A stretch of 32,000 bases of DNA from Clostridiaceae bacterium (GCA_018432235.1 JAHDLO010000012.1:1461-33460); one strand, 5' to 3'; shown: positions 1-18,957, counted from the first letter of the stretch. The notes: generated from the letters alone by a model not told the origin. Numbers and translations: made by a program.

Positions 1-2
1 GC

Positions 3-320
3 GCTCTCAGCCATAAGGTATCGCTGGGTACGGATATTCACGGCAACATTACCCGCCTTAATAATGCCCTTGCTGAAATCCCCAAAAAGCTGGAGTATTG
101 CCGGGAGCAGTTAAGTACCCTTCATCATCAGATGGAAACAGCCAAGGAGCAGATTGACATTCCCTTTGAAAAGGAACAGGAGTTGCAAACAAAATCCGCG
201 CGTCTGGCTGAATTGAACATTTTGCTCAATATGGATAAGCGGGAAAACGAAATGGTTGACGGCGAACCTGACGAGGATATGGACATTCCCCAAAAGAAAG
301 CTGTTGGCTATGAAAGATGA
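3..320 (+). CDS. 3' end (about 105 codons) of a larger ORF entering from upstream. It is a coiled-coil tail, and function cannot be determined from this fragment. It may be the large helicase/methylase-type ICE protein that often precedes the toprim gene.
   Basis: Frame 3 is open from nt 3 to the TGA at 318-320. The track ORF 132..320 is only the part after an internal Met. The stop lies 11 nt before the next gene. Confidence 0.6.
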   Translation, partial: ALSHKVSLGTDIHGNITRLNNALAEIPKKLEYCREQLSTLHHQMETAKEQIDIPFEKEQELQTKSARLAELNILLNMDKRENEMVDGEPDEDMDIPQKKAVGYER

Positions 321-331
321 GGTGATAAACT

Positions 332-1288
332 ATGCCCTATGTAACACCGGAGCAGATCGAGCGCGCAAAGCAAATGGATCTGCTGACGTATCTTCAATAT
401 TACGAGCCGCAGGAACTGGTACGCTTTTCAGGTAATGTCTTTACCACACGAAGCCATGACAGCCTGAAAATCAGCAACGGTAAATGGAACTGGTGGTCAC
501 ACGGCATCGGTGGGCGCTCTGCTCTGGACTATCTTATCAAGGTGCGGGGCATGACCCTCCCCGAAGCGGTGCTTCAGATAGACGGACAGGCGGCCATCAC
601 GCCGCCTATCCTGTCAAGAAAACTGGAAGCCGCAGAGCCGAAAAAGCTGCTTTTGCCAGAAAAGAACGAGAATAACGACCGAGTGGTTGATTACCTCTTA
701 GGACGCGGCATACAAATCACGCTGATTGACTACTGCCTTGATACCGGGCGGCTGTATGAAAGCCAGCCTTACCATAATGCAGTCTTTATCGGCTTTGACC
801 GCAAAGGCACACCGAAATATGCAACCCTTCGGGGAACCACAAACCGGCGCTATATGGGAGAAGCCAACGGCAGCGACAAGCATTTCTCCTTCTCAATTCC
901 CTCACGGGAAGAAAGTCACAGTCTGCACCTGTTTGAAAGCGCCATTGACCTGCTTTCCTATGGCACATTGGATCTGCTTTCCGGCAGAGATTGGCGAAAG
1001 GAAAACTACCTGTCCCTTGCGGGGATTTATAAACCGAAGAAGAACATTGAGGAAAGCACACCACCTGCCGCTTTGATGCAATACTTAAAAGATTTCCCAC
1101 AAATTAAGGAAATCGCTTTACACTTGGACAACGACACAGCCGGACGTCTGGCGGCAGAGACTATCAAGACACTTCTTTCCCCCTCATATGTCATTTCCGA
1201 TGAGCCGCCGAAGCGTGGAAAGGACATGAATGACTACTTAAAAATTTCGTTGGGATTGCAACGCCCGCAGGAAATTGAAAGACTGTAA
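332..1288 (+). CDS. DUF3991/toprim domain protein (primase-like ICE replication/processing protein)
   Basis: 318-aa ORF with a GAGGTG RBS upstream. It carries the toprim acidic motifs FESAIDLLS (conserved Glu) and LHLDNDTAGR (DxD). The N-terminal pattern SHDSLKISNGKWNWWSHGIGG is typical of DUF3991-toprim proteins of Firmicutes conjugative elements. Confidence 0.8.
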   Translation: MPYVTPEQIERAKQMDLLTYLQYYEPQELVRFSGNVFTTRSHDSLKISNGKWNWWSHGIGGRSALDYLIKVRGMTLPEAVLQIDGQAAITPPILSRKLEAAEPKKLLLPEKNENNDRVVDYLLGRGIQITLIDYCLDTGRLYESQPYHNAVFIGFDRKGTPKYATLRGTTNRRYMGEANGSDKHFSFSIPSREESHSLHLFESAIDLLSYGTLDLLSGRDWRKENYLSLAGIYKPKKNIEESTPPAALMQYLKDFPQIKEIALHLDNDTAGRLAAETIKTLLSPSYVISDEPPKRGKDMNDYLKISLGLQRPQEIERL

Positions 1289-1299
1289 CCAAATATCGA

Positions 1300-1328
1300 T
1301 TGAATTCATAGCAAGAAAGGGGTATAAT
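1300..1328 (+). promoter_or_regulatory. Sigma-A type promoter for the TA (and probably STAND) operon
   Basis: TTGAAT (1300-1305), a 17-nt spacer, then TATAAT (1323-1328). It lies 37 nt upstream of the antitoxin ATG. Confidence 0.55.
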
Positions 1329-1364
1329 ATGGTTAGAATGTTACTACAAGGAGTTGATGATATC

Positions 1365-1655
1365 ATGCAGATTAAACCGTCCGCAAGCATCCGACAGAAT
1401 TACAACGAAATCGCGGATTTATGCAGATCTACCGGGGAACCTGTGTATCTTACGAAAAACGGCGAGGGTGATCTTGTGGTTATGGATATAGATACGTTTG
1501 CCCGCCGTGAAAAAATGCTAAAGCTGCGTGAAGAACTGTTGGCTGTCGAGGAAGATCGTCTGGCAGGCCGCACCGGAACTACACCGGACGAATTAGACAG
1601 CTATCTGGAAAGCATTATTGATGAGGTGGAACATGGAAAAAAAGCCTCAATATAA
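1365..1655 (+). CDS. Type II antitoxin, Phd/YefM family
   Basis: I moved the start to the ATG at 1365 (MQIKPSASIRQNYNEI...), which follows an AAGGAG RBS. The pattern ...EPVYLTKNGEGDLVVMDIDTF... is the classic Phd/YefM N-terminal fold signature. It overlaps the downstream toxin gene. Confidence 0.8.
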   Translation: MQIKPSASIRQNYNEIADLCRSTGEPVYLTKNGEGDLVVMDIDTFARREKMLKLREELLAVEEDRLAGRTGTTPDELDSYLESIIDEVEHGKKASI

Positions 1656-1950
1656 GGTGATTGTCTCCGACCGTGCCCGTCAGATGCTGGCGGGCCATGT
1701 TCGTTTTCTGGCGCAGAAAAGCCCTTCTGCCGCCCGCAAAACAAAGAATGAATTGATGGATGCCATCCGTTCCCTTTCCACCATGCCGGAGCGATTTCCT
1801 TTTCTCAATGCAGAATTTATACCGCTGAACAAATATCACAAGATGTTCGTTGAGAAATGGTATTTGATTCTGTATCAGATCAAGGATCAGACGGTGTACG
1901 TTGACTATATAGTGGATTGCAGGCAGGATTATGGATGGTTGGTACATTAG
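1633..1950 (+). CDS. Type II toxin, RelE/ParE family
   Basis: Start at the ATG at 1633 (MEKKPQYKVIVSDRARQML...). It is about 105 aa and overlaps the antitoxin by 23 nt. Size, order and sequence pattern (...MPERFPFL..., ...YLILYQIKDQTVYVDYIVDCRQDY) fit ParE/RelE-fold toxins. Confidence 0.75.
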   Translation: MEKKPQYKVIVSDRARQMLAGHVRFLAQKSPSAARKTKNELMDAIRSLSTMPERFPFLNAEFIPLNKYHKMFVEKWYLILYQIKDQTVYVDYIVDCRQDYGWLVH

Positions 1951-1971
1951 AGAATAAAGGGGAGTGAGAGT

Positions 1972-4900
1972 ATGAACTGGCAACATTTTCAAACTTATAA
2001 CGAGGCACCAACACGAGCTTTTGAATGTATGTGCAATCAATTGTTTGAATTGTGGTGCAAAAAAACATATCCTGACTCTTTAAAGGTCGTTACAATTGTA
2101 AATGGTGCTGGAGGAGATGGAGGAGTTGAATCCTTTGCAATAAAAAAAGATGATACAATTATCGGAATGCAAGCTAAGTGGTTTTCAAATAGTATTACCA
2201 CAGGCCAGTTCGCTCAAATTAGCAGTTCGATTAAAACTGCTCTTAGAGTAAGACCATTGATAAGACAATATATTGTATGTGTTCCTCGTGATTTATCATC
2301 AGATCGCATTGGTAGAGGAAAGAAGGTTATAGAAGATACTGAATTAAATCGTTGGCAACAGTTAAAAAATAAATTAGAAGATGATTATCCAGGATTGAAT
2401 ATTGAGTTATGGAATGAAACTCAACTTTTAACTAAATTGCAAGATAGTGATGCTACAGGGATATACCGATATTGGTTTGAAAAATCCGAGATATCAAAAG
2501 AGCTTATTGTGTACTCTTACGAGAAACAAAAAAGTGGATGGTTATCGCAGAAATATACTCCTTGTCTGCATATTCAAGGACAAATGCAAAAAAGCATTTT
2601 AAAATTCGTAGGAACATTAGATAATCGTCAAAGCAGTATAAGTACGCTGAGTGCTATGAGCCAGCAATGCAGCAAATTTTTGAAAGCGTGTGATGACTAT
2701 TTACAATTTGTTCAAGATCATTCATCGCAGGAGCAGTTAATACATGAAATTCAGAGAACTCAAGAGCAAGTAATTAAGTTATTAGGTGAGATAAAATGTA
2801 TTATAGATGCTTTAAATAATGACCAACAAGTTGCATCCTCAATTAACGAAAACAATTGGTATATTGATTTTGCTATGCTAATAGAGTTGTTAAAACAAAA
2901 CGAGCAATTAAGAAAAAATTACTTTCACATTAGCGAGATTAAAAAAACTGCCGAAGCACTTCAGGAAAATGAAATCCATACTATTATTTCGGATATTCGT
3001 TTTCAATTAGATAATAAAAAATATCTGATATTAGGTAATCCTGGTTCGGGAAAAACACATGGAATAGCTAACCTGGTGGAATCATTACTAAATGAAAATT
3101 TACATATCCCGATATTAATTCGTGCGAAAGATGTCAATCCAAATAGCAATTGGGCTGATATCTTAAAAAAATCTTTAGGGTTAGCTTCGGTTTGGAATGA
3201 AACAGAATTGTGGCAGGCTTTAGAAGCATTGTCGTATCGTGCAGAAGTTAATAATGTCTATACAGCAGACATTGTTGTAGCTAAAATCATTCCGAAGATA
3301 TTAATTTGCATTGATGGGGTGGATGAATCTAAACCATATGACTTATGGTATGATCGCCTTAGAGAGATAGAAGCAATATGTTACAAATATTCCAGGCTGA
3401 GGTTTTGTATTACAAGTCGACCATATGTATTTAGAGAATTGGCATATGATGATAGCTTATTAATTAATACATTAAGACTACCTTCTGATGGCGATGTTCC
3501 GGTAAACGAATTATTTCTAGAATATATTGAATATTTTCATATAAATATCGAAGGGTGCTCTTGGATTAAATGGAGCTTAAAGACTCCTCTTGCATTGCGT
3601 GTTTTTTGTGAGAATTATAGGCATAGAAGTATATACGGCGTAGAAAAATCTTCTGTTACTATTACTAATCTTTTATCGAAGAAGTTTCATATAATTGAAA
3701 AAGAATTTAACTCCAAATATGAAACGGGGTATGGAGATAGAGAGCTTATTGTGCAAAATTCATTATTAGCAATAGCCAGAAAGCTTCTAATAAATACAAC
3801 GGTGTATAGAAATGATTTAATTGATTCTCTGAAAGACGTTTCAGGGCTTATTACCGCTGCCAATGATTATCGAAGAGAACTTATTGATTTTATCGAAGAT
3901 TATGGAATACTGCAGAGCTATACAATAAATTCAGATACTATATTTGAGCCTCCAAAAACATATTATTCTATTGGCGTTCAGCCCTTTTTTGATTATATAC
4001 TGGCACTATTAATTACTAATCAAATACAAGATCCATCAGAGGTCACACTTACAGATACATTAGTAGACCACGAGGGTGCTCTGCAAATGGTATCTATTCT
4101 TCTTTTGGAAGATTATTGCTACTTGATAACTGAGAATAAAAGTTTCAGAGATAATTTAAGTAATAACGAATTATTTGATTTAGTTTGCTTTTCATTATCA
4201 AACGTATCACCAACCCCTACATCTAAATATATACCTTTGGTCAAAAGGATGATGAATTATAATTCGGACTGTTTAAAAAGTGTTGTGAATAAAATTGTTC
4301 TTCCGGTATCACGAATTGAGAATCATCCTCTTGGTGCACAGATGTTACATGAGTACCTTATGAGTTTTGAAACTGCGGGAAAACGTGACGTTATATGGTC
4401 TGTACCTAGCTATTTAAGGTATCCAGGAGATGCTCCTTGGAAATGTTACACAAAAATTGATTTAAACGACAAAAGATATAAATTATGTGGTGAGGACAAG
4501 CATAATAGTATTCCCTTAGTCTATGCATGGATGCTAACCACTGTTAATAATATTGAAAGAGTGAGTTATAGGCGAGAACTAATGAAATGGGCTTTTAGGC
4601 AACCTTTTGAATTTTATAAAATGTTCGAGCATACATGGTGCACTAACGATCCTCAGATGAAAGAAGATTTATTTTCAGTAGCAATGGGGACTGTATTTAT
4701 GCTTGAAAAAGGACATCCCTGTATTAAATTATTCAGTGATTGGATGATAAAAAATATTTTTGCTTCAGATAAAATTAGTATGCATTATAATTGTGCTATT
4801 CGATATTACAGCAGAGCTATTGTTGAACGGTCCTATGCATTTGGTAACATAAATGATGAGGATGTAAGTAAGAGCCGTCCACCATTTCATACAAGTGGAA

Positions 4901-6531
4901 CTATCCCTCTTAATCGTGAGGCTACTTCTGGTACCCGGATGGGTGGCTTTGGGCCAATTGATTATGATTTGGCAAGATATGTTCTGTGTGATCCTATGGA
5001 TAGAATGTTTTTCAGCCGCCACGGTAGTGATAAAACTGCTGAAGAGATTGACTATACATGGCATTTTTCTGAGAAAGAAATTGAAGATATATTGACTAAC
5101 GAAGAAATTTTTCTTAATGAGAAATGTAGAGAAAAATTGAGAGAGATTCAGCTTGCATACAAAAAGCAAAGGAGATTTTGGGATCATCTGGATGATTTGA
5201 TTGATGACGGTGAAGATACCACCACTCCAAATTCGAAATCGCCTGCTTACAAATACAATAAAGAAGCAGACAGCTTCTTGTTAGAACATGCGCGAATTAT
5301 GGAAATGGAATCACTTGAACCTAATCAATTTGTCCTATCAGCTGCATATGCTTACATTCTACTACAGGGATGGAATGAAGAAGAGTTCTACGGTTGTCCT
5401 AATGGAGGTAAACCTGGGGAAGTAATCGGTGTTGATATTGCAATTTTGCGCCAACACCATCCCGCAACTCACGGTTCCAAAAGTAGCATAATGACTTTTT
5501 GTGAGAAGTATACATGGTGCGCTCGCAATGAAATTTTAGGATATTTATCAGATCGGTTACCATTTAGAGATTTTGAGAGAGCGCCATCATTACTGAACGA
5601 TTATGGTTTACTTGATGATTTCCCAAATCCAGCGCAAGAATTATATCAAGAAAATCCAGATAGCATTATGGAAAAAACCTCTTGGTTTGTCCCAGAGGAA
5701 CTATCACCTTTAATTAACGAAAATGTGGGAGAAAATGCCATAAGATATTGGATAATAAATGCTCCTACTCCTAATTTTGAAAAATGGATTGATATTCGTG
5801 ATTTCAACCATGAAATTGTACAAGAAGAGAAAAAGAATTGGATACCATTATATAGTTTTAATTCTGTATCTAATACTTTGGGTGGAGAATCACTTATGTG
5901 GATTTCTTCAGCAATAATCACAAATGAGCATTTTAAATACTTAAAAAATGACATAATGAATCGAAAAGACTCCTTAGTTTATAATTTAAGCAATCCTGAG
6001 GATTTACATTCATCTACTGAGACTCAATGCTATATAACCCCTAAAGAGATATGCTGGATGAATTGGAAAAATGAGTGTTACAATAAAATCTATAATATTT
6101 CTATTGATGATGGCGATTTTGTGGAATATACAATTGATAAGACAGTTGAAGAGTGTACAGCTAATTATCCTGAATTTGGTGATGTATATTATAAACTACC
6201 TTCCCGAATTATACGAGAATTGCTGGGCATATGTGATGGGGATGGGTATAAGTACTGTAATGGAGAAAAACAGCTTGAAGCAATTAGGTTTGAAGCAGGA
6301 GAAAAGTGGCATGACTCACAATCATATTTATGTGTTAATCGAGAAAAACTGCTTTTGCAATTAGAGCATCTTAAATTACAGATTTTTTGGACTGCTAGAT
6401 TACTCAGACAAGCTACTTCAAAAGCGCTTGAGAAATATCCTAAACTGCGGAGTCGAAATGACAAATGCTGGTTAGTTTGGTTTGAAGATGGAGAGTTAAG
6501 AACTCTTCTTTTTTCAGAGCAGGTTGATTAA
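1972..6531 (+). CDS. Giant NACHT-type STAND NTPase (bacterial NLR-like/Avs-like) with an N-terminal Mrr-like PD-(D/E)xK nuclease-type domain and a C-terminal region of about 900 aa of unknown fold
   Basis: 1519-aa uninterrupted ORF with a GGGGAG RBS, beginning 21 nt after the toxin stop. Walker A is GNPGSGKTH (nt 3034-3060). Walker B is the NACHT style ILICIDGVDES (nt 3301-3333). The NACHT signature RFCITSRPYVF follows. The N-terminus reads FECMCNQLFELW...GDGGVESFAI...GMQAKWF, matching the Mrr_cat pattern FExL...DGGID...QcK. Confidence 0.8.
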   Translation: MNWQHFQTYNEAPTRAFECMCNQLFELWCKKTYPDSLKVVTIVNGAGGDGGVESFAIKKDDTIIGMQAKWFSNSITTGQFAQISSSIKTALRVRPLIRQYIVCVPRDLSSDRIGRGKKVIEDTELNRWQQLKNKLEDDYPGLNIELWNETQLLTKLQDSDATGIYRYWFEKSEISKELIVYSYEKQKSGWLSQKYTPCLHIQGQMQKSILKFVGTLDNRQSSISTLSAMSQQCSKFLKACDDYLQFVQDHSSQEQLIHEIQRTQEQVIKLLGEIKCIIDALNNDQQVASSINENNWYIDFAMLIELLKQNEQLRKNYFHISEIKKTAEALQENEIHTIISDIRFQLDNKKYLILGNPGSGKTHGIANLVESLLNENLHIPILIRAKDVNPNSNWADILKKSLGLASVWNETELWQALEALSYRAEVNNVYTADIVVAKIIPKILICIDGVDESKPYDLWYDRLREIEAICYKYSRLRFCITSRPYVFRELAYDDSLLINTLRLPSDGDVPVNELFLEYIEYFHINIEGCSWIKWSLKTPLALRVFCENYRHRSIYGVEKSSVTITNLLSKKFHIIEKEFNSKYETGYGDRELIVQNSLLAIARKLLINTTVYRNDLIDSLKDVSGLITAANDYRRELIDFIEDYGILQSYTINSDTIFEPPKTYYSIGVQPFFDYILALLITNQIQDPSEVTLTDTLVDHEGALQMVSILLLEDYCYLITENKSFRDNLSNNELFDLVCFSLSNVSPTPTSKYIPLVKRMMNYNSDCLKSVVNKIVLPVSRIENHPLGAQMLHEYLMSFETAGKRDVIWSVPSYLRYPGDAPWKCYTKIDLNDKRYKLCGEDKHNSIPLVYAWMLTTVNNIERVSYRRELMKWAFRQPFEFYKMFEHTWCTNDPQMKEDLFSVAMGTVFMLEKGHPCIKLFSDWMIKNIFASDKISMHYNCAIRYYSRAIVERSYAFGNINDEDVSKSRPPFHTSGTIPLNREATSGTRMGGFGPIDYDLARYVLCDPMDRMFFSRHGSDKTAEEIDYTWHFSEKEIEDILTNEEIFLNEKCREKLREIQLAYKKQRRFWDHLDDLIDDGEDTTTPNSKSPAYKYNKEADSFLLEHARIMEMESLEPNQFVLSAAYAYILLQGWNEEEFYGCPNGGKPGEVIGVDIAILRQHHPATHGSKSSIMTFCEKYTWCARNEILGYLSDRLPFRDFERAPSLLNDYGLLDDFPNPAQELYQENPDSIMEKTSWFVPEELSPLINENVGENAIRYWIINAPTPNFEKWIDIRDFNHEIVQEEKKNWIPLYSFNSVSNTLGGESLMWISSAIITNEHFKYLKNDIMNRKDSLVYNLSNPEDLHSSTETQCYITPKEICWMNWKNECYNKIYNISIDDGDFVEYTIDKTVEECTANYPEFGDVYYKLPSRIIRELLGICDGDGYKYCNGEKQLEAIRFEAGEKWHDSQSYLCVNREKLLLQLEHLKLQIFWTARLLRQATSKALEKYPKLRSRNDKCWLVWFEDGELRTLLFSEQVD

Positions 6532-6578
6532 ATTAATTATAAAAGGGATCTATCTTTGGATAATTCAAGCGGGTCTAT

Positions 6579-6705
6579 CAGTTTATACCATTGAATAAGC
6601 TCACAAGATGTTTTTGAAAAAAGTGGTATGTGATTCTATATAAATCAAGGATCAGAGCTATGACTATAACGTGGAGTCGGAAGGTAGTAACCGTTTATAA
6701 GGAAT
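6579..6705 (+). pseudogene. Decayed duplicate of the 3' end of the RelE/ParE toxin gene
   Basis: It aligns by eye with 1818-1940. Shared strings are TTTATACC, TCACAAGATGTT, TGATTCT and ATCAAGGATCAGA, in the same order and spacing. It contains a 1-nt deletion and in-frame stops (e.g. TAA at about 6640). Confidence 0.6.
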
Positions 6706-6711
6706 AGGGTA

Positions 6712-6996
6712 ATGGGAGAAGAACCGTATGATTTGTTCGGTACATTTTTAGCTGCCAGCAAGTTTGAAGGTATTGTGTTTGCTAAGAACCAGGACCATGG
6801 GGAAGAATTAGTTAAAAAATTGATTTCTGGCTATCCACTTGAGGCTGGAGAACCTTTCAGTATTATCGGAGGCTTAGATAAGACTTTGGAAGAAATCTAT
6901 AATGAACGTCCGGAGCTTATTGGAATAACATCGGAGCAAGGGGATATTTATAATGAATTCATGCACAGAAATTCTATAAGCAAGTACGTTCGATAA
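6712..6996 (+). CDS. Hypothetical 94-aa protein
   Basis: ORF lying between the STAND gene and the HNH-like gene on the same strand. I recognise no motif. It could be a fragment of something larger. Confidence 0.4.
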   Translation: MGEEPYDLFGTFLAASKFEGIVFAKNQDHGEELVKKLISGYPLEAGEPFSIIGGLDKTLEEIYNERPELIGITSEQGDIYNEFMHRNSISKYVR

Positions 6997-7015
6997 AAGT
7001 AATAGGGGGTTCATA

Positions 7016-8323
7016 ATGTGCAGATGTATATATTGTAATTCAGATGATTTATCAGTCTCTGACATCATTTCATATGCTTTAACTGGTGCTAAAGTAACAA
7101 AAAAATTTGTGTGCCATGAGCATAATGCATTTACAAACGAAAACTTTGAAAGATTTGCAATAGCCAATCTTGATTTTTTCAGGAACTCATTAGGCTTGTC
7201 TGAAAGAAGAAGCGGTAAGGATATTAAATATAGAGCTAATTTAGTTATTGATGGAATTACCATACCAAATGTTGCGGTAAGCGGTAGAACGTCAATTTAT
7301 GAAGACAAGAAAAGACTTTTTTCTGCCGAGCATGATGGTAAAAAAGTTTTGATTGGCAATGTGGATAAGCTAAAGCAGAAAAAAGGTGTCTGCGCTGGTA
7401 ATATAGATACTTTAGATATGAGCGACACAGTTGTAAGTGTTACGTTTTCCATCGAACAATTATTTGCTTCTGATGAAATGTTAAGGACAATCGCTAAAAT
7501 TGCTTACGAGTGGTATTGCTATTCTAATAAAATCAATAGTTTTATACCTGAAATATATCAAGACATCGTTGATTGCGTTCTAATGAAACGAAACGTTACA
7601 GAATTTGTAGAAATTGTTGTTGACGGAAATCTTGATTATGCATTAAAAGATATTTGTTATTTGGGAAGTCACGGATTGTTTGAGTACGTTGATATAGATG
7701 GATATAAATATGTCATTCTAAATTTTTGGGGCATTATCTATTATAAAATTCGTATTTGTAATTTAAATAGTCCTAATTTTAATTTGGCTAATTATTATAA
7801 TCTTTTTTTATATGCAATAGACGGAGAAAAATCAGAGACCTGTTTTGGTACAATGGGAAAATCGAACTTTATTTCAATGCCCGCCAAACAGGCAATGCAA
7901 AAATTCAATAAGGTATATGCCTCAAAGCTGGAACAGCTTGTAAAAACCACTGTTCTATCTCTTGCTAAGATGAAAGAGTTAATTGATGAATTGCGAAAAG
8001 CTATTACAATATATAAGCAACCACCTTATGATTTTGCTCGTCTTGTTGAATATGAATGTAATGAGCGAATAACGACAATTCATGTATTATTATTTCTTTT
8101 GGGGCATGAAGAAAACTATATATTTAGTAGTAGTTTTAATGAAAACCTTAAATCATTCTACAAGATTGATGATACACTAACCGTGACGGTAGAGGAAAAC
8201 AAGGAATATCTTAGATATTTGCTGCAACTCCATGAAAGTGGTACGCTACTAAACTCTATAGAAGAAGGAATAACGTTTTTTGATAAAATATATTTATATG
8301 AAAAGAGTAACATAAAAGATTAA
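7016..8323 (+). CDS. 435-aa protein with an N-terminal HNH_5-like Cys motif (degenerate catalytic His) and an uncharacterised C-terminal domain
   Basis: AGGGGG RBS and low GC like the STAND gene. The N-terminus is CIYCNSDDLSVSDIISYALTG...VCHEHN. This parallels the HNH pattern CxYC...(E/D)HIIPxxLGG...C..CN, but has Ile where the catalytic His is expected and CHEHN in place of CxxCN. Confidence 0.6.
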   Translation: MCRCIYCNSDDLSVSDIISYALTGAKVTKKFVCHEHNAFTNENFERFAIANLDFFRNSLGLSERRSGKDIKYRANLVIDGITIPNVAVSGRTSIYEDKKRLFSAEHDGKKVLIGNVDKLKQKKGVCAGNIDTLDMSDTVVSVTFSIEQLFASDEMLRTIAKIAYEWYCYSNKINSFIPEIYQDIVDCVLMKRNVTEFVEIVVDGNLDYALKDICYLGSHGLFEYVDIDGYKYVILNFWGIIYYKIRICNLNSPNFNLANYYNLFLYAIDGEKSETCFGTMGKSNFISMPAKQAMQKFNKVYASKLEQLVKTTVLSLAKMKELIDELRKAITIYKQPPYDFARLVEYECNERITTIHVLLFLLGHEENYIFSSSFNENLKSFYKIDDTLTVTVEENKEYLRYLLQLHESGTLLNSIEEGITFFDKIYLYEKSNIKD

Positions 8324-8531
8324 TTCGAGCTTCTGCTATCTATTATGTGAGCATAATGGGAGCTTGGCTAAGGCGTTGAGAAATCAGCACCTTTTTTTTA
8401 TGCCCAAAAATCAAGAAAGGTGGTTTAGCCCATATGAATGCTATCAGGTGGAAACTAATAGAAACCCTTTGTATGATTGGCAGAGCTTCTTTTTCGGCCA
8501 GTAATATTTGAAATCAAATGTAACCATATTT

Positions 8532-8609
8532 CAACACAAGACTGCTGTCTTGTGTTGTAGCAAGCACTGAATAATGCCAGCATTATTCGCTTGTCAGGGA
8601 TAATCCCTG
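8532..8609 (+). other. Candidate oriT: three consecutive inverted repeats upstream of mobC/relaxase
   Basis: IR1 is CAACACAAGAC-tgct-GTCTTGTGTTG (8532-8557, a perfect 11-bp stem). IR2 is GAATAATGC-ca-GCATTATTC (8569-8588). IR3 is CAGGGA-taa-TCCCTG (8595-9609 region, precisely 8595-8609). They lie 29 nt upstream of the mobC start, the usual oriT position. Confidence 0.5.
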
Positions 8610-8637
8610 AAACCCTTAAAAGAACAGGAGGTTATAT

Positions 8638-9009
8638 ATGCTTAAACGAAGCATAAAAGTGACATTTCGTATGAATACTAGAGAATTTCAGCGATTAAAA
8701 ACTCAGGTGAAGAAAACCGGACTTTCGCAGGAAGCTTTTATTCGTTCACTTATAAACGGTTATATGCCCAAGGAACTGCCTCCTATCGATTACTTCTCTA
8801 TGATGCGAGAGCTTCACGCTATTGGAAACAATTTAAATCAACTTGCGGCTAAGGCTAATGCCACAGGGCATATTGATAAAGCTGTTTTTCAGTATGAAGC
8901 AAACCGACTTAGAAGGGCTGTACAGGATATACAAGAAGCAGTTATATCACCGGAAAGGAGAGAAAACTATGGCAACCACAGCAATATGGGATGTGACAGA
9001 CCGCCTTGA
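8638..9009 (+). CDS. mobC: MobC-type relaxosome accessory protein (ribbon-helix-helix)
   Basis: 123-aa ORF with a GGAGG RBS. The pattern KVTFRMNTREFQRLKTQVKKTGLSQEAFIRSLI...ELHAIGNNLNQLAAKAN is typical of MobC/RHH mobilisation proteins. It overlaps the relaxase start. Confidence 0.75.
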   Translation: MLKRSIKVTFRMNTREFQRLKTQVKKTGLSQEAFIRSLINGYMPKELPPIDYFSMMRELHAIGNNLNQLAAKANATGHIDKAVFQYEANRLRRAVQDIQEAVISPERRENYGNHSNMGCDRPP

Positions 9010-10360
9010 CCGAGTAATTGATTATGCCACTAATCCCAACAAAACAGAGAACCTTGATTTTTCCAGTCCTGATTTTCAGGATTTGCAGAAGGTGCTGGAT
9101 TACACACAGCAGGATGCCAAAACCGAAAGGCAATTTTATGTAACGGGAATCAACTGCGACCCGGTCACTGCCTGCGAACAAATGAGCCGGACAAAGTTCC
9201 AGTTTCAAAAGACGGAAGGCATACTGGCTTTTCACGGTTACCAAGCCTTTGCACCGGGAGAAGCCACACCTGAAACCGCTCATGCCATCGGCGTAAAGCT
9301 GGCGCAGGAGCTATGGGGCGACCGTTTTGAGGTAGTGGTTTCCACCCACCTTGACAAGCAGCATCTTCATAATCATTTTGTGCTGAACTCTGTGTCCTTC
9401 ATGGACGGCAAGCGGTATTATGATAATAAGGCTACTTATGCCCTCATGCGGCAGACCTCCGACCGGCTGTGCCGGGAATACTCCCTTTCCGTTATTGAAA
9501 ACCCAAAACGGGGAAAATCGAAGCATTATGCCGAATGGAAGGCCGAAAAGGAAGGTAAGCCCACCTGGCGGGGACAGATCCGGGAGGATGTTGACAGTAT
9601 GATTGCCGCCTCCATGACTTTCACACAGTTTATCGCCACTCTCCGCAAGCAGGGATATGAAGTTAAAACCGGTGTGAAATACATGGCGGTGCGTCCGCCG
9701 GGCAAGGAGCGTTTTGTCCGGCTGAAAACCTTGGGGGACGATTACACTGAGGAAGCCATTAAGCAGCGCATCCTGCAAAACCGCAGCCCAAAGCGGGAGC
9801 AAATTCTCCCGGAACCTAAACGAAAACGGTATATCTTAAAAGGTTCTTTCAAGACAGCGAAGAAAATAACCGGACTGCAAGCTCTTTACTTTCATTACTT
9901 ATATAAGATGGGGATTCTGCCCCGAAAACGTGCGTCCAGCAAAAGGACGCATTTTTTATTGCGGGAGGACCTCCGGTACCTGGAGGAAATCACCGAACAA
10001 ACCAAGCTGCTTTGTGCTCACCATATTTCGAGCAAGGGGCAGCTTTTCACATATCAGTTAGCCGCGGAGCAGGAAATGAGCAGACTGTATGCCGACCGCA
10101 AAGCCCTTTACAACCGGATACGTCGCTGTAAGGACGATGAGCTGGTAACGGCATATAAGGAGCAGATTGCCGGACTTTCCAAAAAACTTTCCCTGCTCCG
10201 CAAGGAGGTGAAGCTCTGTACGGGCATCCTGTCCCGTTCCGAGGAAATGAAGCGGAAGTTGCTTCAAGTCAGACAGGAAGAAATCCAACATGGAAAGGAG
10301 GAAAAAACTTATGAACAACGGAGCCGACGCAGCGGACCAAATCGTAAATATGAGTTTTAA
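8969..10360 (+). CDS. Relaxase/mobilisation nuclease (MobA/VirD2-type)
   Basis: I moved the start to the ATG at 8969 (MATTAIWDV...), which follows GGAGAG. The histidine-triad motif is STHLDKQHLHNHFVLNSV. The C-terminal half is coiled-coil. Confidence 0.85.
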   Translation: MATTAIWDVTDRLDRVIDYATNPNKTENLDFSSPDFQDLQKVLDYTQQDAKTERQFYVTGINCDPVTACEQMSRTKFQFQKTEGILAFHGYQAFAPGEATPETAHAIGVKLAQELWGDRFEVVVSTHLDKQHLHNHFVLNSVSFMDGKRYYDNKATYALMRQTSDRLCREYSLSVIENPKRGKSKHYAEWKAEKEGKPTWRGQIREDVDSMIAASMTFTQFIATLRKQGYEVKTGVKYMAVRPPGKERFVRLKTLGDDYTEEAIKQRILQNRSPKREQILPEPKRKRYILKGSFKTAKKITGLQALYFHYLYKMGILPRKRASSKRTHFLLREDLRYLEEITEQTKLLCAHHISSKGQLFTYQLAAEQEMSRLYADRKALYNRIRRCKDDELVTAYKEQIAGLSKKLSLLRKEVKLCTGILSRSEEMKRKLLQVRQEEIQHGKEEKTYEQRSRRSGPNRKYEF

Positions 10361-11114
10361 AGGAATTGAGGTGCTGGCTAAAATCTCCGGTGAGGGAGCA
10401 AAAAACCTGGCTACCTATCTCTATGCTGTGCTGAAAGACCAGAAAAAGACCAGAGGTAAGACCCGTCTGGAGGGGCTTTTGCGCAGTGGTAAGGAACTGA
10501 AAGTCTTTGCAGTCAAGAACGAAGATTTACAGAAATTCACCCAGGAGGCAAAACGTTACGGCGTACTCTATTGCGCTCTCCGTGACAAAAATGATACTGA
10601 CGGCATGTGCGACATTATGGTGAGGGCGGAGGATGCATCCAAAATCAATCGCATTGTGGAACGTTTCAAGCTGGCTACTGTGGATACGGCAAGCATCAAG
10701 AGTGAAATCGAAAAATCCAGAGCTGCCAAGGAAGAGGAAAAAACTCCTGTCGAAAAAGGAACGCCCACCGAAAAAAGCACGGATGATTTTCTGGACGAAC
10801 TCATGGCAAAGCCCGAACAGCCGGAGCCGGTAAAGGAGCAGCCCGACAACCCAAACCCCACCACGGCGACGACGGAGAAATCCCATCCGTCCGAGCCTAT
10901 CTCAGAGCGCAGCGGGAAAGCCGCCGAGGGTACTATTGAGCGGCCAAGAAGATCCGTCCGCGAAGAATTGTGGGAAATCAAGGCCGCTCAAAAGGAGCAG
11001 GCGGCACAGCCCAAGCGCGAGCCTGCCAGAGAACAGCAAACTGCCGCAAAACAAAATGTCAAATCTGACAGGCAGCAAACGAAATCCATAAAACCAAAAT
11101 CGAAAGCGAGGTAA
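10311..11114 (+). CDS. pcfB: PcfB/DUF3801 family conjugation protein with a Pro/Glu/Lys-rich tail
   Basis: Start at the ATG at 10311, after GGAAAGGAGG. The pattern IVNMSFKGIEVLAKISGEGAKNLATYLYAVLKDQKKTRGKTRLEGLLRSGKELKVF...AKRYGVLY matches my memory of the PcfB family. Confidence 0.65.
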   Translation: MNNGADAADQIVNMSFKGIEVLAKISGEGAKNLATYLYAVLKDQKKTRGKTRLEGLLRSGKELKVFAVKNEDLQKFTQEAKRYGVLYCALRDKNDTDGMCDIMVRAEDASKINRIVERFKLATVDTASIKSEIEKSRAAKEEEKTPVEKGTPTEKSTDDFLDELMAKPEQPEPVKEQPDNPNPTTATTEKSHPSEPISERSGKAAEGTIERPRRSVREELWEIKAAQKEQAAQPKREPAREQQTAAKQNVKSDRQQTKSIKPKSKAR

Positions 11115-11119
11115 GCTTT

Positions 11120-12019
11120 ATGAGTAATTTCGATGATTTGTTCAAACAGGAAAATGCGCAACCTCCTTCCTCAAACGACCAGCCCTTTGATAAGGAAGCA
11201 TGGAAGCAGCAGAAGCAGGAACAGCGGGAAACGGTTTACGCCATGATTGATGACACGGCGGAAGCCGTGGCTAAGGACGGCACAAAATTTCAGAGCTATC
11301 TGGATGTACAAAGCCGTTTTGACCGTTACAGCGTTGCCAATGCCTTGTTAATCCTTGCGCAGCGGCCGGACGCTACCCGCATAGCGGATTTTGACACTTG
11401 GAAGGAGCAAGGTGTTTACATCCGCAAAAAGGAAAGTGGCTTCTACATCCTGGAGCCGGGCGAGGAATATCAGCGTGAAGACGGCACCACCGGCATCAGC
11501 TATAACCCTAAAAAAATGTTTGATATCACGCAGACCGGGAACAGCCGTAAGGGGGAGACGCCGTCCTATCCCGACGACCGTACTCGCATTAAAGCATTAA
11601 CGGCCCATTCACCTGTTCCCATCCGTATCAGCGATTCCTTGCCTGAAGGTGCAAACGCCCTATACCAGCCGGAAACAAGGGATATTATAATCCTTAAGGG
11701 CATGGACGCGGGCGATATTTTCCGCGCCCTTTCCCAGGAGCTTGCCCATGCGGAAATGGATACGGAAAATGGAAGCTACAGCCGTTCCGACCATGCCTTT
11801 CATGCCTACTGTACATCATACATGCTTTGCAAGCAGTATGGCGTGGACACGGACGGCTACCGTTTTGACCGTGCCCCCGAAATGCTGGAGAGCATGGATA
11901 CCCAGGAAATCCGGGCTGAGCTCTCTGTCATCCGGGATGCCAACTGTGAAATCTCAGGCAGGATGAACCGGGTGCTGGCGCAGCAAAGACAGCAAAAACG
12001 GCAGGAGCCGGAACGTTAG
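11120..12019 (+). CDS. ArdC-like ssDNA-binding (antirestriction-type) protein
   Basis: RYSVANALLILAQRPDATRIADFDTWKEQGVYIRKKESGFYILEP resembles the ArdC N-terminal/DUF1738 pattern (YS..N.lLI..Q.P.AT.va.f..Wke.Gr.vkKGEkGi.IlaP). The C-terminal part has QELAH where an HExxH metalloprotease motif would sit. Confidence 0.5.
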   Translation: MSNFDDLFKQENAQPPSSNDQPFDKEAWKQQKQEQRETVYAMIDDTAEAVAKDGTKFQSYLDVQSRFDRYSVANALLILAQRPDATRIADFDTWKEQGVYIRKKESGFYILEPGEEYQREDGTTGISYNPKKMFDITQTGNSRKGETPSYPDDRTRIKALTAHSPVPIRISDSLPEGANALYQPETRDIIILKGMDAGDIFRALSQELAHAEMDTENGSYSRSDHAFHAYCTSYMLCKQYGVDTDGYRFDRAPEMLESMDTQEIRAELSVIRDANCEISGRMNRVLAQQRQQKRQEPER

Positions 12020-12031
12020 GAGGAATTGCAC

Positions 12032-12217
12032 ATGAAAGAAGAAAGGGTGCTTACCCTGAACGATTACGAATACGGCGTTGTGGTAAACGCTTTAAACGAA
12101 ATGCGCAACGACCTGATTAAAGAAGAACGGCCCACCGACGCAGTAGACGAACTGCTTCTCAAAACCATCGACGCCCCAAGCAAAAAAGTAAAAAGAAGAA
12201 ACCATGAAACGCGCTGA
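12032..12217 (+). CDS. Small conserved-looking hypothetical protein (61 aa) preceding the coupling protein
   Basis: ATG at 12032, 8 nt after a TAGGAGG RBS. It overlaps the start of the next gene by 14 nt, which suggests an operon. Confidence 0.5.
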   Translation: MKEERVLTLNDYEYGVVVNALNEMRNDLIKEERPTDAVDELLLKTIDAPSKKVKRRNHETR

Positions 12218-13967
12218 AACCGCAAGGAGTAACCTGATACTCTTTGCGGTTTTTTTAATTCCGGTGGTATGGGCGGCTTTGCTTACCGCCCCTTCTCTGT
12301 CAGGAGGACTTCCCGAAATTCTTGCCAACCTAACGGCGGCAATGGATAATCCCTTTCACGTCCAATGGGTTGACGATTCATTAAAGTGCATCCTGCTGTT
12401 TGTTGCTGCCTATGGGATGGGCATCGGGATTTACCTTTCCACCAAACGCAATTACCGGCGAAGGGAGGAACACGGCAGCGCCCGCTGGGGCGGCGCGGTG
12501 GCTGTCAATAAAAAATACAGGGATAAGATCCACTTCCGGAATAAAATCCTGACTCAGAATGTCCGTATCGGCCTGGATGGAAGAAAGCACAGACGGAATC
12601 TGAATGTGCTGGTGGTAGGCGGCTCCGGCTCCGGTAAGACGAGATTTTACGCCAAGCCTAACATCATGCAGGCCAACACCTCTTTTGTTGTGCTTGACCC
12701 CAAGGGGGAGATCCTGCGGGACACGGGAAATCTGCTCAAAGCCAAGGACTATGAAATCAAGGTGCTGGATTTAATCAACATGCACCTGTCCCACTGCTAC
12801 AATCCCTTTTCCTACCTACAGGACGACAAGGACGTGCTGAAGCTGGTGACCAACCTGATTAGAAATACCACGCCCAAAGGCAGTAATACCAACGACCCGT
12901 TTTGGGAGCGTTCTGAAACGGCCCTGCTGGAAGCATTAATCCTGTACCTGCTTTACGAAGCCCCGCCGGAGGAACAAAACTTCCCGATGGTCATGGAAAT
13001 GATTGCCGCAGCCGAGGTCCGGGAGGATGACGAAACTTATCAAAGTCCTTTGGATGAACTGTTTGAACGGCTGGAAATGCGGGAGCCGGAGCATCTGGCG
13101 GTCAAACAGTATAATATCTTTAAGCTGGCGGCAGGCAAGACTGCCAAAAGTATTCTTATCAGCTTGGGGGTGCGGCTGGAGAAATTTAACTTGGCTTCCA
13201 TAGCCGGAATTACCACCACGGACGAACTGGATCTGGCCTACATCGGAGAAAAGAAAACGGCACTTTTTGCCGTCATACCGGACAACGATTCATCCTTTAA
13301 TTTCATTATCGGTATGCTTTATACACAGCTATTCCAACAGCTCTACTTTCTTGCCGACCATAGGTACGACGGACGGCTCCCTATTCACGTCCATTTTGTC
13401 ATGGACGAGTTTTCCAATGTCGCTTTGCCGGATGAATTTGACAAGCTGCTTTCCACCATGCGGTCTCGTGAAATATCCGTTTCCATTATTCTGCAAAACC
13501 TAGCGCAGCTAAAAGCCTTGTTCAAGGATACCTGGGAATCCATCGTGGGCAACTGTGACGAATTTCTGTACCTGGGCGGCAACGAGCAAAGCACCCATAA
13601 GTATGTATCCGAGCTTTTGGGCAAGGAAACCATTGACACCAATTCCTACGGGCAGAGTAAGGGCAGAAACGGCAGCTATTCCATCAATTATCAATTGTCG
13701 GGGCGTGAGCTTCTGACTCCTGATGAAGTGCGAATGCTGGACAACCGCTATGCCTTGCTGTTTATCCGGGGAGAACGTGCGGTGATGGATGACAAGTACG
13801 ATATTTTAAAGCACCCCAACCTCAAGCTGACCGTTGACGGCAACAGCGAAGCTTTCCGTCACGGAGGCACGGAAAACGCCCTGGATTGGAAAGCTGTAAC
13901 CTTAAACGAGAACAGCGATTACGAGCTTCTCACCGAGGAAGAACTCGAAATCCTGCTGCAATCCTGA
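12204..13967 (+). CDS. virD4: Type IV coupling protein (VirD4/TraG family)
   Basis: 587 aa with two N-terminal TM segments. Walker A is VVGGSGSGKT and Walker B is VHFVMDEFSN. A conserved ILQNLAQL block is also present. Confidence 0.9.
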   Translation: MKRAETARSNLILFAVFLIPVVWAALLTAPSLSGGLPEILANLTAAMDNPFHVQWVDDSLKCILLFVAAYGMGIGIYLSTKRNYRRREEHGSARWGGAVAVNKKYRDKIHFRNKILTQNVRIGLDGRKHRRNLNVLVVGGSGSGKTRFYAKPNIMQANTSFVVLDPKGEILRDTGNLLKAKDYEIKVLDLINMHLSHCYNPFSYLQDDKDVLKLVTNLIRNTTPKGSNTNDPFWERSETALLEALILYLLYEAPPEEQNFPMVMEMIAAAEVREDDETYQSPLDELFERLEMREPEHLAVKQYNIFKLAAGKTAKSILISLGVRLEKFNLASIAGITTTDELDLAYIGEKKTALFAVIPDNDSSFNFIIGMLYTQLFQQLYFLADHRYDGRLPIHVHFVMDEFSNVALPDEFDKLLSTMRSREISVSIILQNLAQLKALFKDTWESIVGNCDEFLYLGGNEQSTHKYVSELLGKETIDTNSYGQSKGRNGSYSINYQLSGRELLTPDEVRMLDNRYALLFIRGERAVMDDKYDILKHPNLKLTVDGNSEAFRHGGTENALDWKAVTLNENSDYELLTEEELEILLQS

Positions 13968-13992
13968 AAAATCTACATGGAGGTATAATTCT

Positions 13993-14298
13993 ATGAAAAT
14001 GTCCAAAAGAACCAAAACGGCTTTTGCCGTATACTGCGCACTGGTATTAATGACTGCCCTTTTTACCGCACCAGCCTATGCCGCAAATGACCCGCTGACC
14101 GTCGTTAATAATCTATCCGATTTTATCTTCGGACTGATCCGCGCCATCGGGATGATCCTACTTGGTTTTGGTATAGTGCAAATCGGCCTTTCCCTCAAAT
14201 CCCACGACCCGTCTCAGAGAGCAAATGGGTTTCTCACTCTTGCCGGCGGCATCATTATTACCTTTGCCAAAGAGATTTTAAATCTCATTACAGGCTGA
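13993..14298 (+). CDS. Maff2 family small membrane protein (pilin/VirB2-like candidate)
   Basis: 101 aa with a GGAGG RBS. It has a signal-like N-terminus ending AYAAND, followed by two hydrophobic helices. This is the typical Maff2 position, directly after the coupling protein. Confidence 0.7.
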   Translation: MKMSKRTKTAFAVYCALVLMTALFTAPAYAANDPLTVVNNLSDFIFGLIRAIGMILLGFGIVQIGLSLKSHDPSQRANGFLTLAGGIIITFAKEILNLITG

Positions 14299-14376
14299 TA
14301 TGAAGCGCCTCAAATATAAGGGGAACTGGCCGGTAAAAGCCTGTTCCCCAAATTTCTTCAAGGAGGTGGTTTTGTT

Positions 14377-15216
14377 ATGTCAAGCGGCAACTGGGTAATC
14401 GACAACTTGAACAACGCCCTGCAGACATGGAATGAAAAGCTGGCGGAAATCTGGCAGCTTGTGGCCCAATCTCCCACAGAATTTAAAGGCGGCGGTATTT
14501 GGAACGTTATTGTAAATATCCATGATGCATTGCAGGCCATCGGCCTTGCTCTGCTGGTACTGTTCTTCGTAATCGGTGTGGTTAAAACCTGCGGCAGCTT
14601 CGCGGAAGTCAAAAAGCCCGAACACGCTTTGAAGCTGTTCATCCGCTTTGCCCTGGCCAAAGGCGTGGTGACCTATGGGCTGGAGTTGATGATGGCACTG
14701 TTCAACATTGTGCAGGGCATAATCTCTACTATTATGACCAACGCGGGCTTTACGACTACCACCCCAACCGTCCTGCCAGACACAATTGTGCAGGCTGTCG
14801 AGGATTGCAGCTTCCTACAGAGCATACCGCTGTGGGCGGTGACCCTGATCGGAGGTCTGTTCATTACGGTGCTGTCCTTCATTATGATTCTGTCGGTGTA
14901 CGGGCGGTTTTTTAAATTATATTTATACACAGCAATCGCCCCCGTACCTATGGCCTCCTTTGCGGGAGAACCGAGCCAGAGCATCGGCATATCCTTCTTG
15001 AAAGGCTATGCCGCCGTCTGTCTGGAAGGGGCAATCATTGTCCTTGCCTGTGTTATTTTTTCCGTCTTTGCAGTGTCACCGCCGGTGGTGGATAGCAGCG
15101 CCAGCGCCGTTACAATGGTGTGGAGCTATGTAGGAGAACTTATTTTCAATATGCTGGTGCTGGTCGGTGCCGTCAAGATGGCCGACCGGGTGGTACGGGA
15201 GATGATGGGGTTGTAA
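14377..15216 (+). CDS. VirB6/TrbL-like polytopic membrane protein of the T4SS
   Basis: 279 aa with an AAGGAGG RBS and at least 5 hydrophobic helices. It lies between the Maff2-like and PrgI-like genes, as in Clostridia ICEs. Confidence 0.7.
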   Translation: MSSGNWVIDNLNNALQTWNEKLAEIWQLVAQSPTEFKGGGIWNVIVNIHDALQAIGLALLVLFFVIGVVKTCGSFAEVKKPEHALKLFIRFALAKGVVTYGLELMMALFNIVQGIISTIMTNAGFTTTTPTVLPDTIVQAVEDCSFLQSIPLWAVTLIGGLFITVLSFIMILSVYGRFFKLYLYTAIAPVPMASFAGEPSQSIGISFLKGYAAVCLEGAIIVLACVIFSVFAVSPPVVDSSASAVTMVWSYVGELIFNMLVLVGAVKMADRVVREMMGL

Positions 15217-15405
15217 TGCTGTCAGCCGTTGATATTTCTCTCGTACTGATTTTGTTCCCGCTTGCTCCTGCACAAAGTCCGGAAAAAGAATGGAGACAAA
15301 AAGAGCATAGAGCAGTGGTATCCCAAGCCATAAGAAAGATGCGATTTTAAACATGGAGTTTAACAGAAGCATTAATAAAAATATGAAAATGGATATGTAC
15401 ATCAT
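15076..15405 (-). CDS. Possible small two-TM membrane protein encoded antisense. Its tail overlaps the 3' end of the virB6-like gene.
   Basis: On the minus strand, a strong RBS (GGAAAGGAGGG) sits 8 nt before ATGATG (the start at 15405). The product begins MMYISIFIFLLMLLLNSMFKIASFLWLGIPLLYALFVSILF. The reading frame only closes at 15076, inside the convergent gene. Confidence 0.3.
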   Translation of the reverse strand: MMYISIFIFLLMLLLNSMFKIASFLWLGIPLLYALFVSILFPDFVQEQAGTKSVREKYQRLTALQPHHLPYHPVGHLDGTDQHQHIENKFSYIAPHHCNGAGAAIHHRR

Positions 15406-15494
15406 AAATAAACCCTCCTTTCCTAATTCCATTATCACCCATGGAAAAAGAAAATGGAAGGATATCACAGTGATAAATCAAAAGGAGGTTTTGC

Positions 15495-15692: not shown

Positions 15693-15752
15693 GGCAAACA
15701 ACCCCACAAAGCTTCATTGCACGGAGCTTTTTTTATTTGGAGGTGATTATAA

Positions 15753-18447: not shown

Positions 18448-18521
18448 TAAACCATACAAGCCTTAAACGACTATCCATATTTACGGTCAGCCGTTTATTT
18501 ATTAGTAAGGAGGAAAACACA

Positions 18522-18926: not shown

Positions 18927-18957
18927 GTCAACAAATTATGAAAAGGAGGTGCGCGCG

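Follow-up and report, generated by a model that had tools for sequence, protein, structure and literature searches.

The DNA analyzed here, a stretch of 32,000 nucleotides (nt) from a Clostridiaceae bacterium (GCA_018432235.1, JAHDLO010000012.1:1461-33460; hereafter the window, with positions counted from its first letter), carries an integrative and conjugative element (ICE) with a low-G+C cargo island. The island is very probably a mosaic of independently acquired cassettes in an ICE hotspot, made up of a known defense gene, Avs2, and two unrelated genes, orf94 and a gene for a protein of 435 amino acids (aa). An earlier sequence-only reading had proposed that the island and the preceding Phd/ParE toxin-antitoxin (TA) pair held a new, undescribed system of TA, STAND and HNH-like genes. 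This proposal was not supported: homologs of Avs2 and of the 435-aa protein were not found together at any of the other loci examined, and the main gene proved to be a member of the named family Avs2.

The low-G+C cargo segment (1952-8347, no strand assigned) is a variable slot that runs from the ParE stop codon to the backbone with the origin of transfer (oriT) and the mobilization (mob) genes. The G+C content was 0.337 across 1952-8347, compared with 0.476 over 1-1951 and 0.476 over 8348-20500. Hand counts of G+C in the sequence-only reading (19/60 at 2041-2100 and 35/60 at 9301-9360) were exact on recount, and its description of low-G+C cargo in an ICE adjoining an oriT/mob module was borne out by the G+C values, the Pfam matches and the inverted repeats. 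The three plus-strand open reading frames (ORFs) that it had described were likewise recovered at 1972-6531 (1519 aa), 6712-6996 (94 aa) and 7016-8323 (435 aa). Blastn homology to three related elements (L088, L071 and L084) ended at 1951 and restarted at 8370; backbone homology restarted at 8348 in two others (L097 and L012). Blastn junctions resolved the island into an Avs2 cassette at 1957-6538, followed by a spacer, an orf94 cassette at approximately 6750-6997 and the 435-aa gene at 7002-8316. The exact three-gene arrangement was found again on only one other contig (L008), which was identical to the window, and a megablast search of window 1-12000 against plasmids gave no match. An integron-like array was considered and rejected, as no attC-like repeats were seen at the junctions, although no systematic search for such repeats was made.

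The 1519-aa protein (1972-6531, plus strand) matched the PADLOC Avs2 (AVAST type 2) profile PDLC02164 almost end to end, with residues 1-1484 aligned to profile positions 4-1465 of 1504 (E=7.3e-78, 260.6 bits). Three further Avs2 models matched with E values from 9e-55 to 5e-27, so that the top four models were all Avs2, and no other Avs type was among the PADLOC matches. The architecture of nuclease, STAND NTPase and large C-terminal sensor, which had been recognized as that of Avs proteins, was thus upheld by the end-to-end match, and the gene was assigned cleanly to a system that already has a name. Pfam saw only the NTPase core (NPHP3_N, residues 348-483, E=7.7e-8). When 20 homologs with identities down to 35% were aligned, the Mrr-like motif GGDGGVE...QAKW (D49, E53, Q67 and K69; nt 2116-2178), the Walker A motif GxPGxGKT (G358, G360 and K361; K361 at nt 3052-3054) and the Walker B motif DGxDE (D451-E452, nt 3322-3327) had all of these residues invariant. 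No nuclease family in Pfam matched the N-terminus, and the nuclease is assigned at the level of the motif. The large C-terminal region (about 1000 aa), a sensor by homology, was covered by the Avs2 profile. Published work has established Avs2 as a single-gene system that senses the large terminase of phages (and, in KpAvs2, other phage proteins too), tetramerizes and in most homologs carries an Mrr-like effector nuclease for double-stranded DNA (PMC13601566). Because of the full-length profile match, the invariant nuclease and Walker motifs and this literature, we classify the 1519-aa protein as a mainstream, canonical member of Avs2.

Relatives of the window Avs2 (76-90% identity) were compared in six other contexts, and the neighbors differed on both sides of the gene. 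In L097, which holds the same ICE, window 769-6534 was collinear and the NikA and relaxase genes followed directly after Avs2; the backbone restarted 14 nt past Avs2, at the equivalent of window 8348, and both orf94 and the 435-aa gene were missing. Another copy of the ICE (L012) had a 309-aa gene in the slot after Avs2 and an ars operon beyond the slot. Two loci (L009/L010) shared only window 1957-6538 (88% identity), which is the plus-strand Avs2 cassette of ribosome-binding site and gene standing alone; there was no TA pair, serine-recombinase fragments lay upstream, and DUF3800 and OLD-TOPRIM/UvrD (Gabija-like) genes lay downstream. In Niallia (L011), Avs2 was followed by GmrSD, again with no TA pair. 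An 87%-identical Avs2 in L139-L141 had a TA remnant upstream, in which residues 29-51 of Phd and 61-110 of ParE were fused (550-770), and downstream an orf94 homolog (orf97) and a transposase-like ORF, putatively IS256-like. Avs2 has outlived the decayed TA pair in these three loci. The gene is an autonomous single-gene module that moves alone between defense islands.

The TA pair ahead of the island consists of a Phd/YefM-type antitoxin (96 aa, 1365-1655, plus strand; Pfam PhdYeFM_antitox, E=2.2e-10, 40.6 bits with a cut-off of 29.8; NCBIfam phd_fam) and a ParE/RelE-type toxin (105 aa, 1633-1950, plus strand; Pfam ParE_toxin, E=1.5e-7, 32.3 bits with a cut-off of 23). The antitoxin starts at ATG 1365 according to the gene call on the identical contig, and at TTG 1275 in the ORF listing; the toxin starts at TTG 1618 or ATG 1633 and overlaps the antitoxin stop. 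In the metagenome scan the toxin had at least 434 close relatives, and the pair abounds in metagenomes from digesters and fermentations. We fetched 80 Phd/ParE relatives with 78-96% identity (L059-L138), of which 54 were informative, with at least 1.5 kb downstream. Avs2 followed the pair in only one of the 54 (L097). With Avs2 relatives in L009 and L011 also standing apart from any TA pair, the suggested coupling of the TA pair to the STAND protein was not sustained. Other cargo behind the pair, pooled over these loci, comprised type III restriction-modification genes, MADS components, AriA, DRT-type reverse transcriptases, IetA and PDC-S73, or there was none. An empty site was seen in L138, where nikA began approximately 275 nt after ParE and the relaxase came next, and L088 and L090 held different low-G+C cargo behind ParE. 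Across L059-L138 the DNA right after the ParE stop was hypervariable, often low in G+C and frequently supplied with defense genes. Since ICE homology breaks at 1951 and restarts at 8348-8370 and the cargo varies, the slot behind ParE is a recombination and cargo hotspot anchored on the TA module. The TA pair itself is a widely shared separate module and not part of the Avs2 system.

The gap between the ParE stop (TAG, 1948-1950) and the ATG of Avs2 at 1972 is 21 nt, as had been noted, and contains the ribosome-binding site AAAGGGGAG. In agreement with the sequence-only reading, the site scan called no terminator between the two genes, and one transcript for the TA pair and the STAND gene is plausible from the 21-nt gap. 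A promoter-like site (TTGAAT-17-TATAAT, 1300-1328, plus strand), a consensus match only, at 10 of 12 positions, lies upstream of Phd/ParE. It had been called the only good promoter; it does top the scan list, but six other sites tie with it at 10/12. Between 1000 and 9000 the scan gave 28 promoter-like sites, not above the 33.8 ± 6.7 expected from shuffles, and because such sites were no commoner than in shuffled DNA the promoter calls are weak evidence. A terminator-like hairpin with a T-run was observed at 6490-6508, within the final 40 nt of the Avs2 coding sequence, and might attenuate read-through to orf94 and the 435-aa gene.

The surroundings of the 435-aa family were surveyed within 10 kb at 46 genome loci and seven metagenome loci (L001-L007, three distinct contexts). 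No homolog of Avs2 or orf94 was found at any of the 46 genome loci or the seven metagenome loci, and the 435-aa gene was found in none of the six other Avs2 contexts, so that the expected co-occurrence of the 435-aa and 1519-aa homologs was not seen. A Proteiniborus locus (L001), whose protein is 75% identical, shared only window 7002-8316; the 435-aa gene therefore travels alone. In three metagenome-assembled genomes (L039, L042 and L052) a homolog stood on the same strand directly after LmuB, with LmuC before LmuB. OLD-TOPRIM/UvrD (Gabija-like) genes lay immediately upstream on the same strand in L041 and L044, and the upstream same-strand neighbors in L016, L056 and L040 were Avs5, PDC-M60C and a ThsA/SIR2-like gene, respectively. 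Further copies adjoined either ICE genes (DUF3991-Toprim or relaxase) or genes for recombinases. Ten further neighbors were tested, and nine had no PADLOC match while one had a short local match only. The family gave no tblastn match in 50,697 phage genomes, was rare in IMG/VR (6 contigs), and in plasmids was represented only by a partial tblastn match to a sister subfamily on two B. thuringiensis megaplasmids (including NZ_CP076541.1, 280402-281130). The 435-aa protein is thus encoded by an independent passenger gene, enriched in defense and ICE cargo regions. We also noted that the homologs in the three Lamassu loci (L039 10004-11290, L042 10004-11296 and L052 5968-7260; 33-35% identity) all stand in the gene order 317-aa unknown, LmuC, LmuB, 435-aa homolog, an arrangement that could be a four-gene Lamassu variant.

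The 435-aa protein (7016-8323, plus strand; cassette 7002-8316) begins with a finger derived from HNH_5 (residues 1-60, nt 7016-7195) in which His is replaced by Asp. Homologs fell into 131 clusters in a 5.8-billion collection, all unannotated and none with a Pfam domain, and 394 family representatives were retrieved at E<=1e-3 from a 1.84-billion library, nearly all from Clostridia and other Bacillota. A full-length size of approximately 430 aa was maintained across the family. Alignment of 37 members down to 32% identity left 35 columns invariant, and the invariant N-terminus comprised C4xxC7, S15-D16-I-I, T23-G24, C33xxH36-N37 and T40-N41. At the position of the catalytic His (D16 in the window protein), 185 of 190 members had Asp, four had His and one had Asn. 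The His was kept in four distant members (P0302, P0338, P0343 and P0371; S-H-I-I). One of them, P0371, gave the best match to Pfam HNH_5 among the distant relatives (E=5.7e-5, 23.4 bits), under the cut-off of 27.5 bits. The description of the 435-aa protein as HNH_5-like without the catalytic His was therefore supported by the invariant Cys motif, D16 and this sub-threshold match. On sequence grounds, the family derives from HNH_5, with Asp in place of the catalytic His. The 394 representatives include a sister subfamily (450-470 aa, P0292-P0377) that has only residues 1-275 (finger and middle domains) in common with the 435-aa protein and a different C-terminal region.

The AlphaFold 2 model of the 435-aa protein was confident (predicted local distance difference test, pLDDT, 90.9; predicted TM score 0.86). 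The finger was modeled as a beta-beta-alpha unit (strands 12-18 and 27-33, helix 34-50; block pLDDT 85-96), and C4, C7, C33 and H36 are predicted to be the zinc-binding pairs of an HNH_5-type finger. Beta-rich, alpha/beta and helical domains follow in the model over approximately 370 residues, for which no recognizable relatives were found in Pfam, NCBIfam, PHROGs, PADLOC, PDB sequences or Foldseek searches of PDB and BFVD. The window protein had no Pfam match at E<=0.1, and no match at E<=0.1 in PADLOC-DB v2 (including the PDC candidate systems) or PHROGs. Foldseek of the model against PDB and BFVD returned nothing at E<=1e-3, with a best TM-score below 0.13 over the query. In alignments by hhalign, the family profile reached significance against neither the canonical HNH_5 protein (E=0.65) nor the HEPN protein (E=0.17) of L145, though the CxxHN and CxxCN helices were paired. 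Several candidates were rejected: the sole NCBIfam match (E=0.062, 13 bits where the cut-off is 200) was at chance level, the best PDB profile-search match, to formin FH2 helices (E=0.28), was also due to chance, and a PD-(D/E)xK nuclease in the middle domain was dismissed because no conserved D...ExK pattern was present.

The small gene orf94 (6712-6996, plus strand) encodes a conserved 94-aa protein, with its homologous part at approximately 6750-6997, and is an independent cassette. Homologs of approximately 97 aa formed 24 clusters, and no match at E<=0.1 was obtained in Pfam, PADLOC-DB v2 (including PDC candidates), NCBIfam or PHROGs. They occurred after Avs2 in L139-L141, among small ORFs of a Paenibacillus region that resembles a mobile element (L143), and, in the same ICE slot of L145, between unknown genes and HEPN and canonical HNH_5 proteins. 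The first 15 or so residues of the window copy differed from the family consensus and from all 21 aligned homologs; its 5' end (6712-6760) reads MGEEPYDLFGTFL compared with the consensus MIYSVHFYYHK, owing to a difference of approximately 25 nt from L145. The gene in the window may thus have been altered or be in decay. The AlphaFold 2 model of orf94 was poor (pLDDT 63). The L145 locus (3888-10900) belongs to a related ICE (Toprim 81% and relaxase 84% identical) that lacks the TA pair. In the slot are three unknown genes (556, 444 and 339 aa), the orf94 homolog and genes for a HEPN protein (422 aa) and a canonical HNH_5 protein (339 aa), the latter thus in the slot equivalent to that of the window.

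The surroundings of the slot carry ICE genes by their Pfam matches. Upstream of the TA pair lies a DUF3991-Toprim primase-like gene (332-1288, plus strand; DUF3991 E=1.3e-12, Toprim_2 E=5e-10), which was kept in the ICE relatives L012, L071, L088, L138 and L145. Downstream, homology to all ICE relatives restarted in an intergenic region of the backbone (8348-8637, plus strand) that precedes the mob genes. Just 5' of nikA it contains perfect inverted repeats (11, 9 and 8 nt) at 8532-8557, 8569-8588 and 8594-8610, which are consistent with a putative oriT. They are followed by a NikA/MobC-type relaxosome accessory protein (8638-9009, plus strand; NikA-like E=6.9e-15, MobC E=2e-6) and a MobA/VirD2-type relaxase of 463 aa (8969-10360, plus strand, from the L008 gene call; Relaxase E=7.9e-39). 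Genes for an ArdC-like protein, a T4 coupling protein and a VirB4-like ATPase come next, with a serine recombinase further on. This large serine recombinase (29374-31089; Resolvase, Recombinase and Zn_ribbon_recom) is probably the ICE integrase. A second lower-G+C stretch was observed at 20500-28000 (G+C 0.37-0.44) with genes for RadC (20924-21628), a TetR-family regulator (22280-23170), an 847-aa PPDK_N and PEP-utilizers protein (23215-25758), whose architecture we take to be that of rifampicin phosphotransferases, and a major facilitator superfamily transporter (25866-27122); it may be a resistance cargo module. The cargo slot behind ParE is probably the leading, oriT-proximal region of the ICE. 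Leading regions of conjugative elements are enriched in anti-defense and TA genes, the latter being over-represented there, and these genes are encoded on the T-strand (PMC11541004).

In the proposed explanation, single-gene cassettes would enter a hypervariable slot of a Clostridia-type ICE, with a Phd/ParE addiction module on one side of it and oriT, NikA and relaxase on the other, and defense function would reside in one gene, Avs2. By homology to characterized Avs2 proteins, binding of a phage protein (as a rule the large terminase) to the C-terminal sensor would be followed by tetramerization driven by the STAND ATPase, and the tetramer would activate the N-terminal Mrr-like PD-(D/E)xK nuclease, so that double-stranded DNA would be degraded and the infection aborted. 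This mechanism is proposed because of family membership and the intact motifs. The TA pair would stabilize the element from outside the Avs2 system. Avs2 appears to have been inserted right behind the ParE stop, carrying no more than its ribosome-binding site upstream. Read-through from the TA promoter is therefore the probable source of its transcription, and the position of Avs2 suggests that the proximity to ParE probably reflects the insertion site and not a functional coupling. The orf94 and 435-aa genes would be separate passengers, the latter from a family that appears solitary and usually sits downstream of a same-strand gene.

Several observations weigh against this explanation. An orf94 homolog stands behind the 87%-identical Avs2 in L139-L141, a second and partly independent adjacency of the two genes, and a 48%-identical homolog of the 435-aa protein lies behind Avs5, so that STAND neighbors occur twice among approximately 40 contexts of the family. 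The sole recurrence of the three-gene combination is on an identical contig, and selection for the combination could still be at work in this lineage. The trigger and the nuclease activity of the window Avs2 are predictions, and no solved relative of the protein came up when PDB sequences were searched. The leading-region call was made from gene order relative to the relaxase.

It is very hard to credit a single new defense system composed of Phd/ParE, the STAND protein, the product of orf94 and the HNH-like protein, in which the TA pair would regulate the STAND gene and the 435-aa protein would be a partner or effector. In its favor, all of the genes share one strand and are closely spaced (ParE and Avs2 lie 21 nt apart, orf94 and the 435-aa gene 19 nt), no terminator was called between ParE and Avs2, and the ParE-Avs2 junction was kept in L012, L097 and L139. 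However, the conserved junctions come from a single ICE lineage, with no TA pair in L009 and L011 and a remnant only in L139; the 435-aa gene was missing from all other Avs2 contexts examined and Avs2 from all other 435-aa contexts; the backbone of the same ICE in L097 restarts 14 nt after Avs2; and Avs2 is already established as a single-gene system (PMC13601566). The comparative data bring this reading close to refuted. A related proposal, that the 435-aa family is a modular accessory appended 3' of unrelated defense operons (Avs2, Avs5, Lamassu, Gabija and PDC-M60) and serving the upstream sensor, is improbable. Homologs lie directly behind LmuB in L039, L042 and L052 (gaps of 18-19 nt in two and an 8-nt overlap in L052), behind GajB-like helicases in L041 (gap 42 nt) and L044 (gap 28 nt), behind Avs5 in L016 and behind PDC-M60C in L056. 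A same-strand ORF was found upstream at 29 of 40 loci with a median gap of approximately 70 nt, the cassette has only about 14 nt upstream of the 435-aa ATG, and recurrently acquired add-on modules have a published precedent (PMC12799240). Nevertheless, most loci had no known defense gene adjoining, nine of the ten further neighbors had no PADLOC match, and many copies lay among ICE backbone genes or next to recombinase genes, directly following those of the tyrosine type in L007 and preceding those of the serine type in L004-L006. The systems found upstream have unrelated mechanisms, and in the window itself orf94 and 485 nt stand between Avs2 and the 435-aa gene.

Two other roles were considered for the passengers. 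Either or both of orf94 and the 435-aa protein could serve the ICE in establishment or anti-defense, with early expression from the leading region; the 435-aa protein might, for instance, have a catalytically altered HNH finger that binds or masks DNA or counters the nucleases of the recipient. Relative to the oriT-like repeats, the genes are on the side away from the relaxase, and they are co-oriented with the mob genes, as in leading regions (PMC11541004), and this match in layout makes such a role a live rival to a defense role. In addition, 435-aa homologs adjoin DUF3991-Toprim or relaxase genes in several ICEs (L001, L015, L021-L023 and L045), and orf94 homologs occur in runs of small ORFs in the mobile-element-like region of Paenibacillus. 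We nonetheless regard the role as unlikely. The 435-aa family is also found away from conjugation genes, approximately nine loci adjoin defense systems, which is a signature of defense and not of anti-defense genes, and the family is absent from the phage genomes searched and rare in IMG/VR. A bona fide defense gene, Avs2, occupies the same slot, and position alone is therefore no sign of anti-defense. Descent from an HNH-type finger, tight cassette boundaries and diverse insertion contexts would also suit a selfish element, homing-endonuclease-like or degenerating, carried as a promoter-less cassette with no benefit to the host. This seems quite improbable, as no target-site pattern was seen and 186 of 190 members have another residue for the His, yet 35 invariant columns and the full length are retained. 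Invariant columns and full length despite the loss of His argue for purifying selection on a non-canonical function.

A mosaic of separate cassettes is therefore the reading that we retain for the island, and within it the 435-aa gene may be given a tentative role of its own. Our best guess, held at somewhat less than even confidence, is that its product is a stand-alone defense or exclusion factor directed at nucleic acids. It is possible, but we would not rely on it, that the family represents a new kind of stand-alone defense or exclusion gene or a modular add-on to defense operons. With similar reserve, the gene may be suggested to spread in a compact cassette that includes hardly any upstream sequence, behind same-strand genes in ICEs and defense islands. 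If the protein were a defense or counter-defense factor, it would be a new type of protein with an unusual active site. The orphan family is worth separate testing, being conserved, confidently folded and found beside Lamassu, Gabija, Avs2 and Avs5. The locus further adds a Clostridia, ICE-borne Avs2 to a well-studied family and documents a hotspot, flanked by Phd/ParE and oriT/mob, in which defense genes are shuffled among ICEs of anaerobic-digester and gut Firmicutes. It also calls for caution, in that tight same-strand arrays in such hotspots can be cassette mosaics and not functional operons.

Defense hotspots are known from other mobile elements, such as hotspot 5 of SXT ICEs and the hotspots of P2 and P4. 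Like these, the present slot has conserved flanks (the TA pair and oriT/mob) around interchangeable cargo that includes several defense genes. The cargo is lower in G+C in the window and in part of the related elements. The slot differs from the known hotspots in its element family and flanks, and it also takes cargo other than defense genes (unknown genes, with an ars operon beyond the slot in L012). As in type II Phd/ParE modules of conjugative elements, the antitoxin and toxin genes overlap, exceed the Pfam thresholds and are widespread as a unit; unlike in other such modules, the site downstream is a variable cargo site, often with defense genes, and no specific link to Avs2 was found. The 435-aa protein shares with HNH_5 (PF14279) a start of the form CxxC...S-x-I-I-P/S...CxxH-N and the predicted beta-beta-alpha arrangement, and differs in having Asp for the catalytic His, CxxH and not CxxC as the second zinc pair, and approximately 370 unmatched residues. 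The window Avs2 has in common with EcAvs2 and KpAvs2 the full-length profile, the Mrr-like motif, Walker A and B, the C-terminal region of approximately 1000 aa and mobility as a single gene. It is distinguished from them as a Firmicutes/Clostridia type that is carried on an ICE, directly behind a ParE stop codon.

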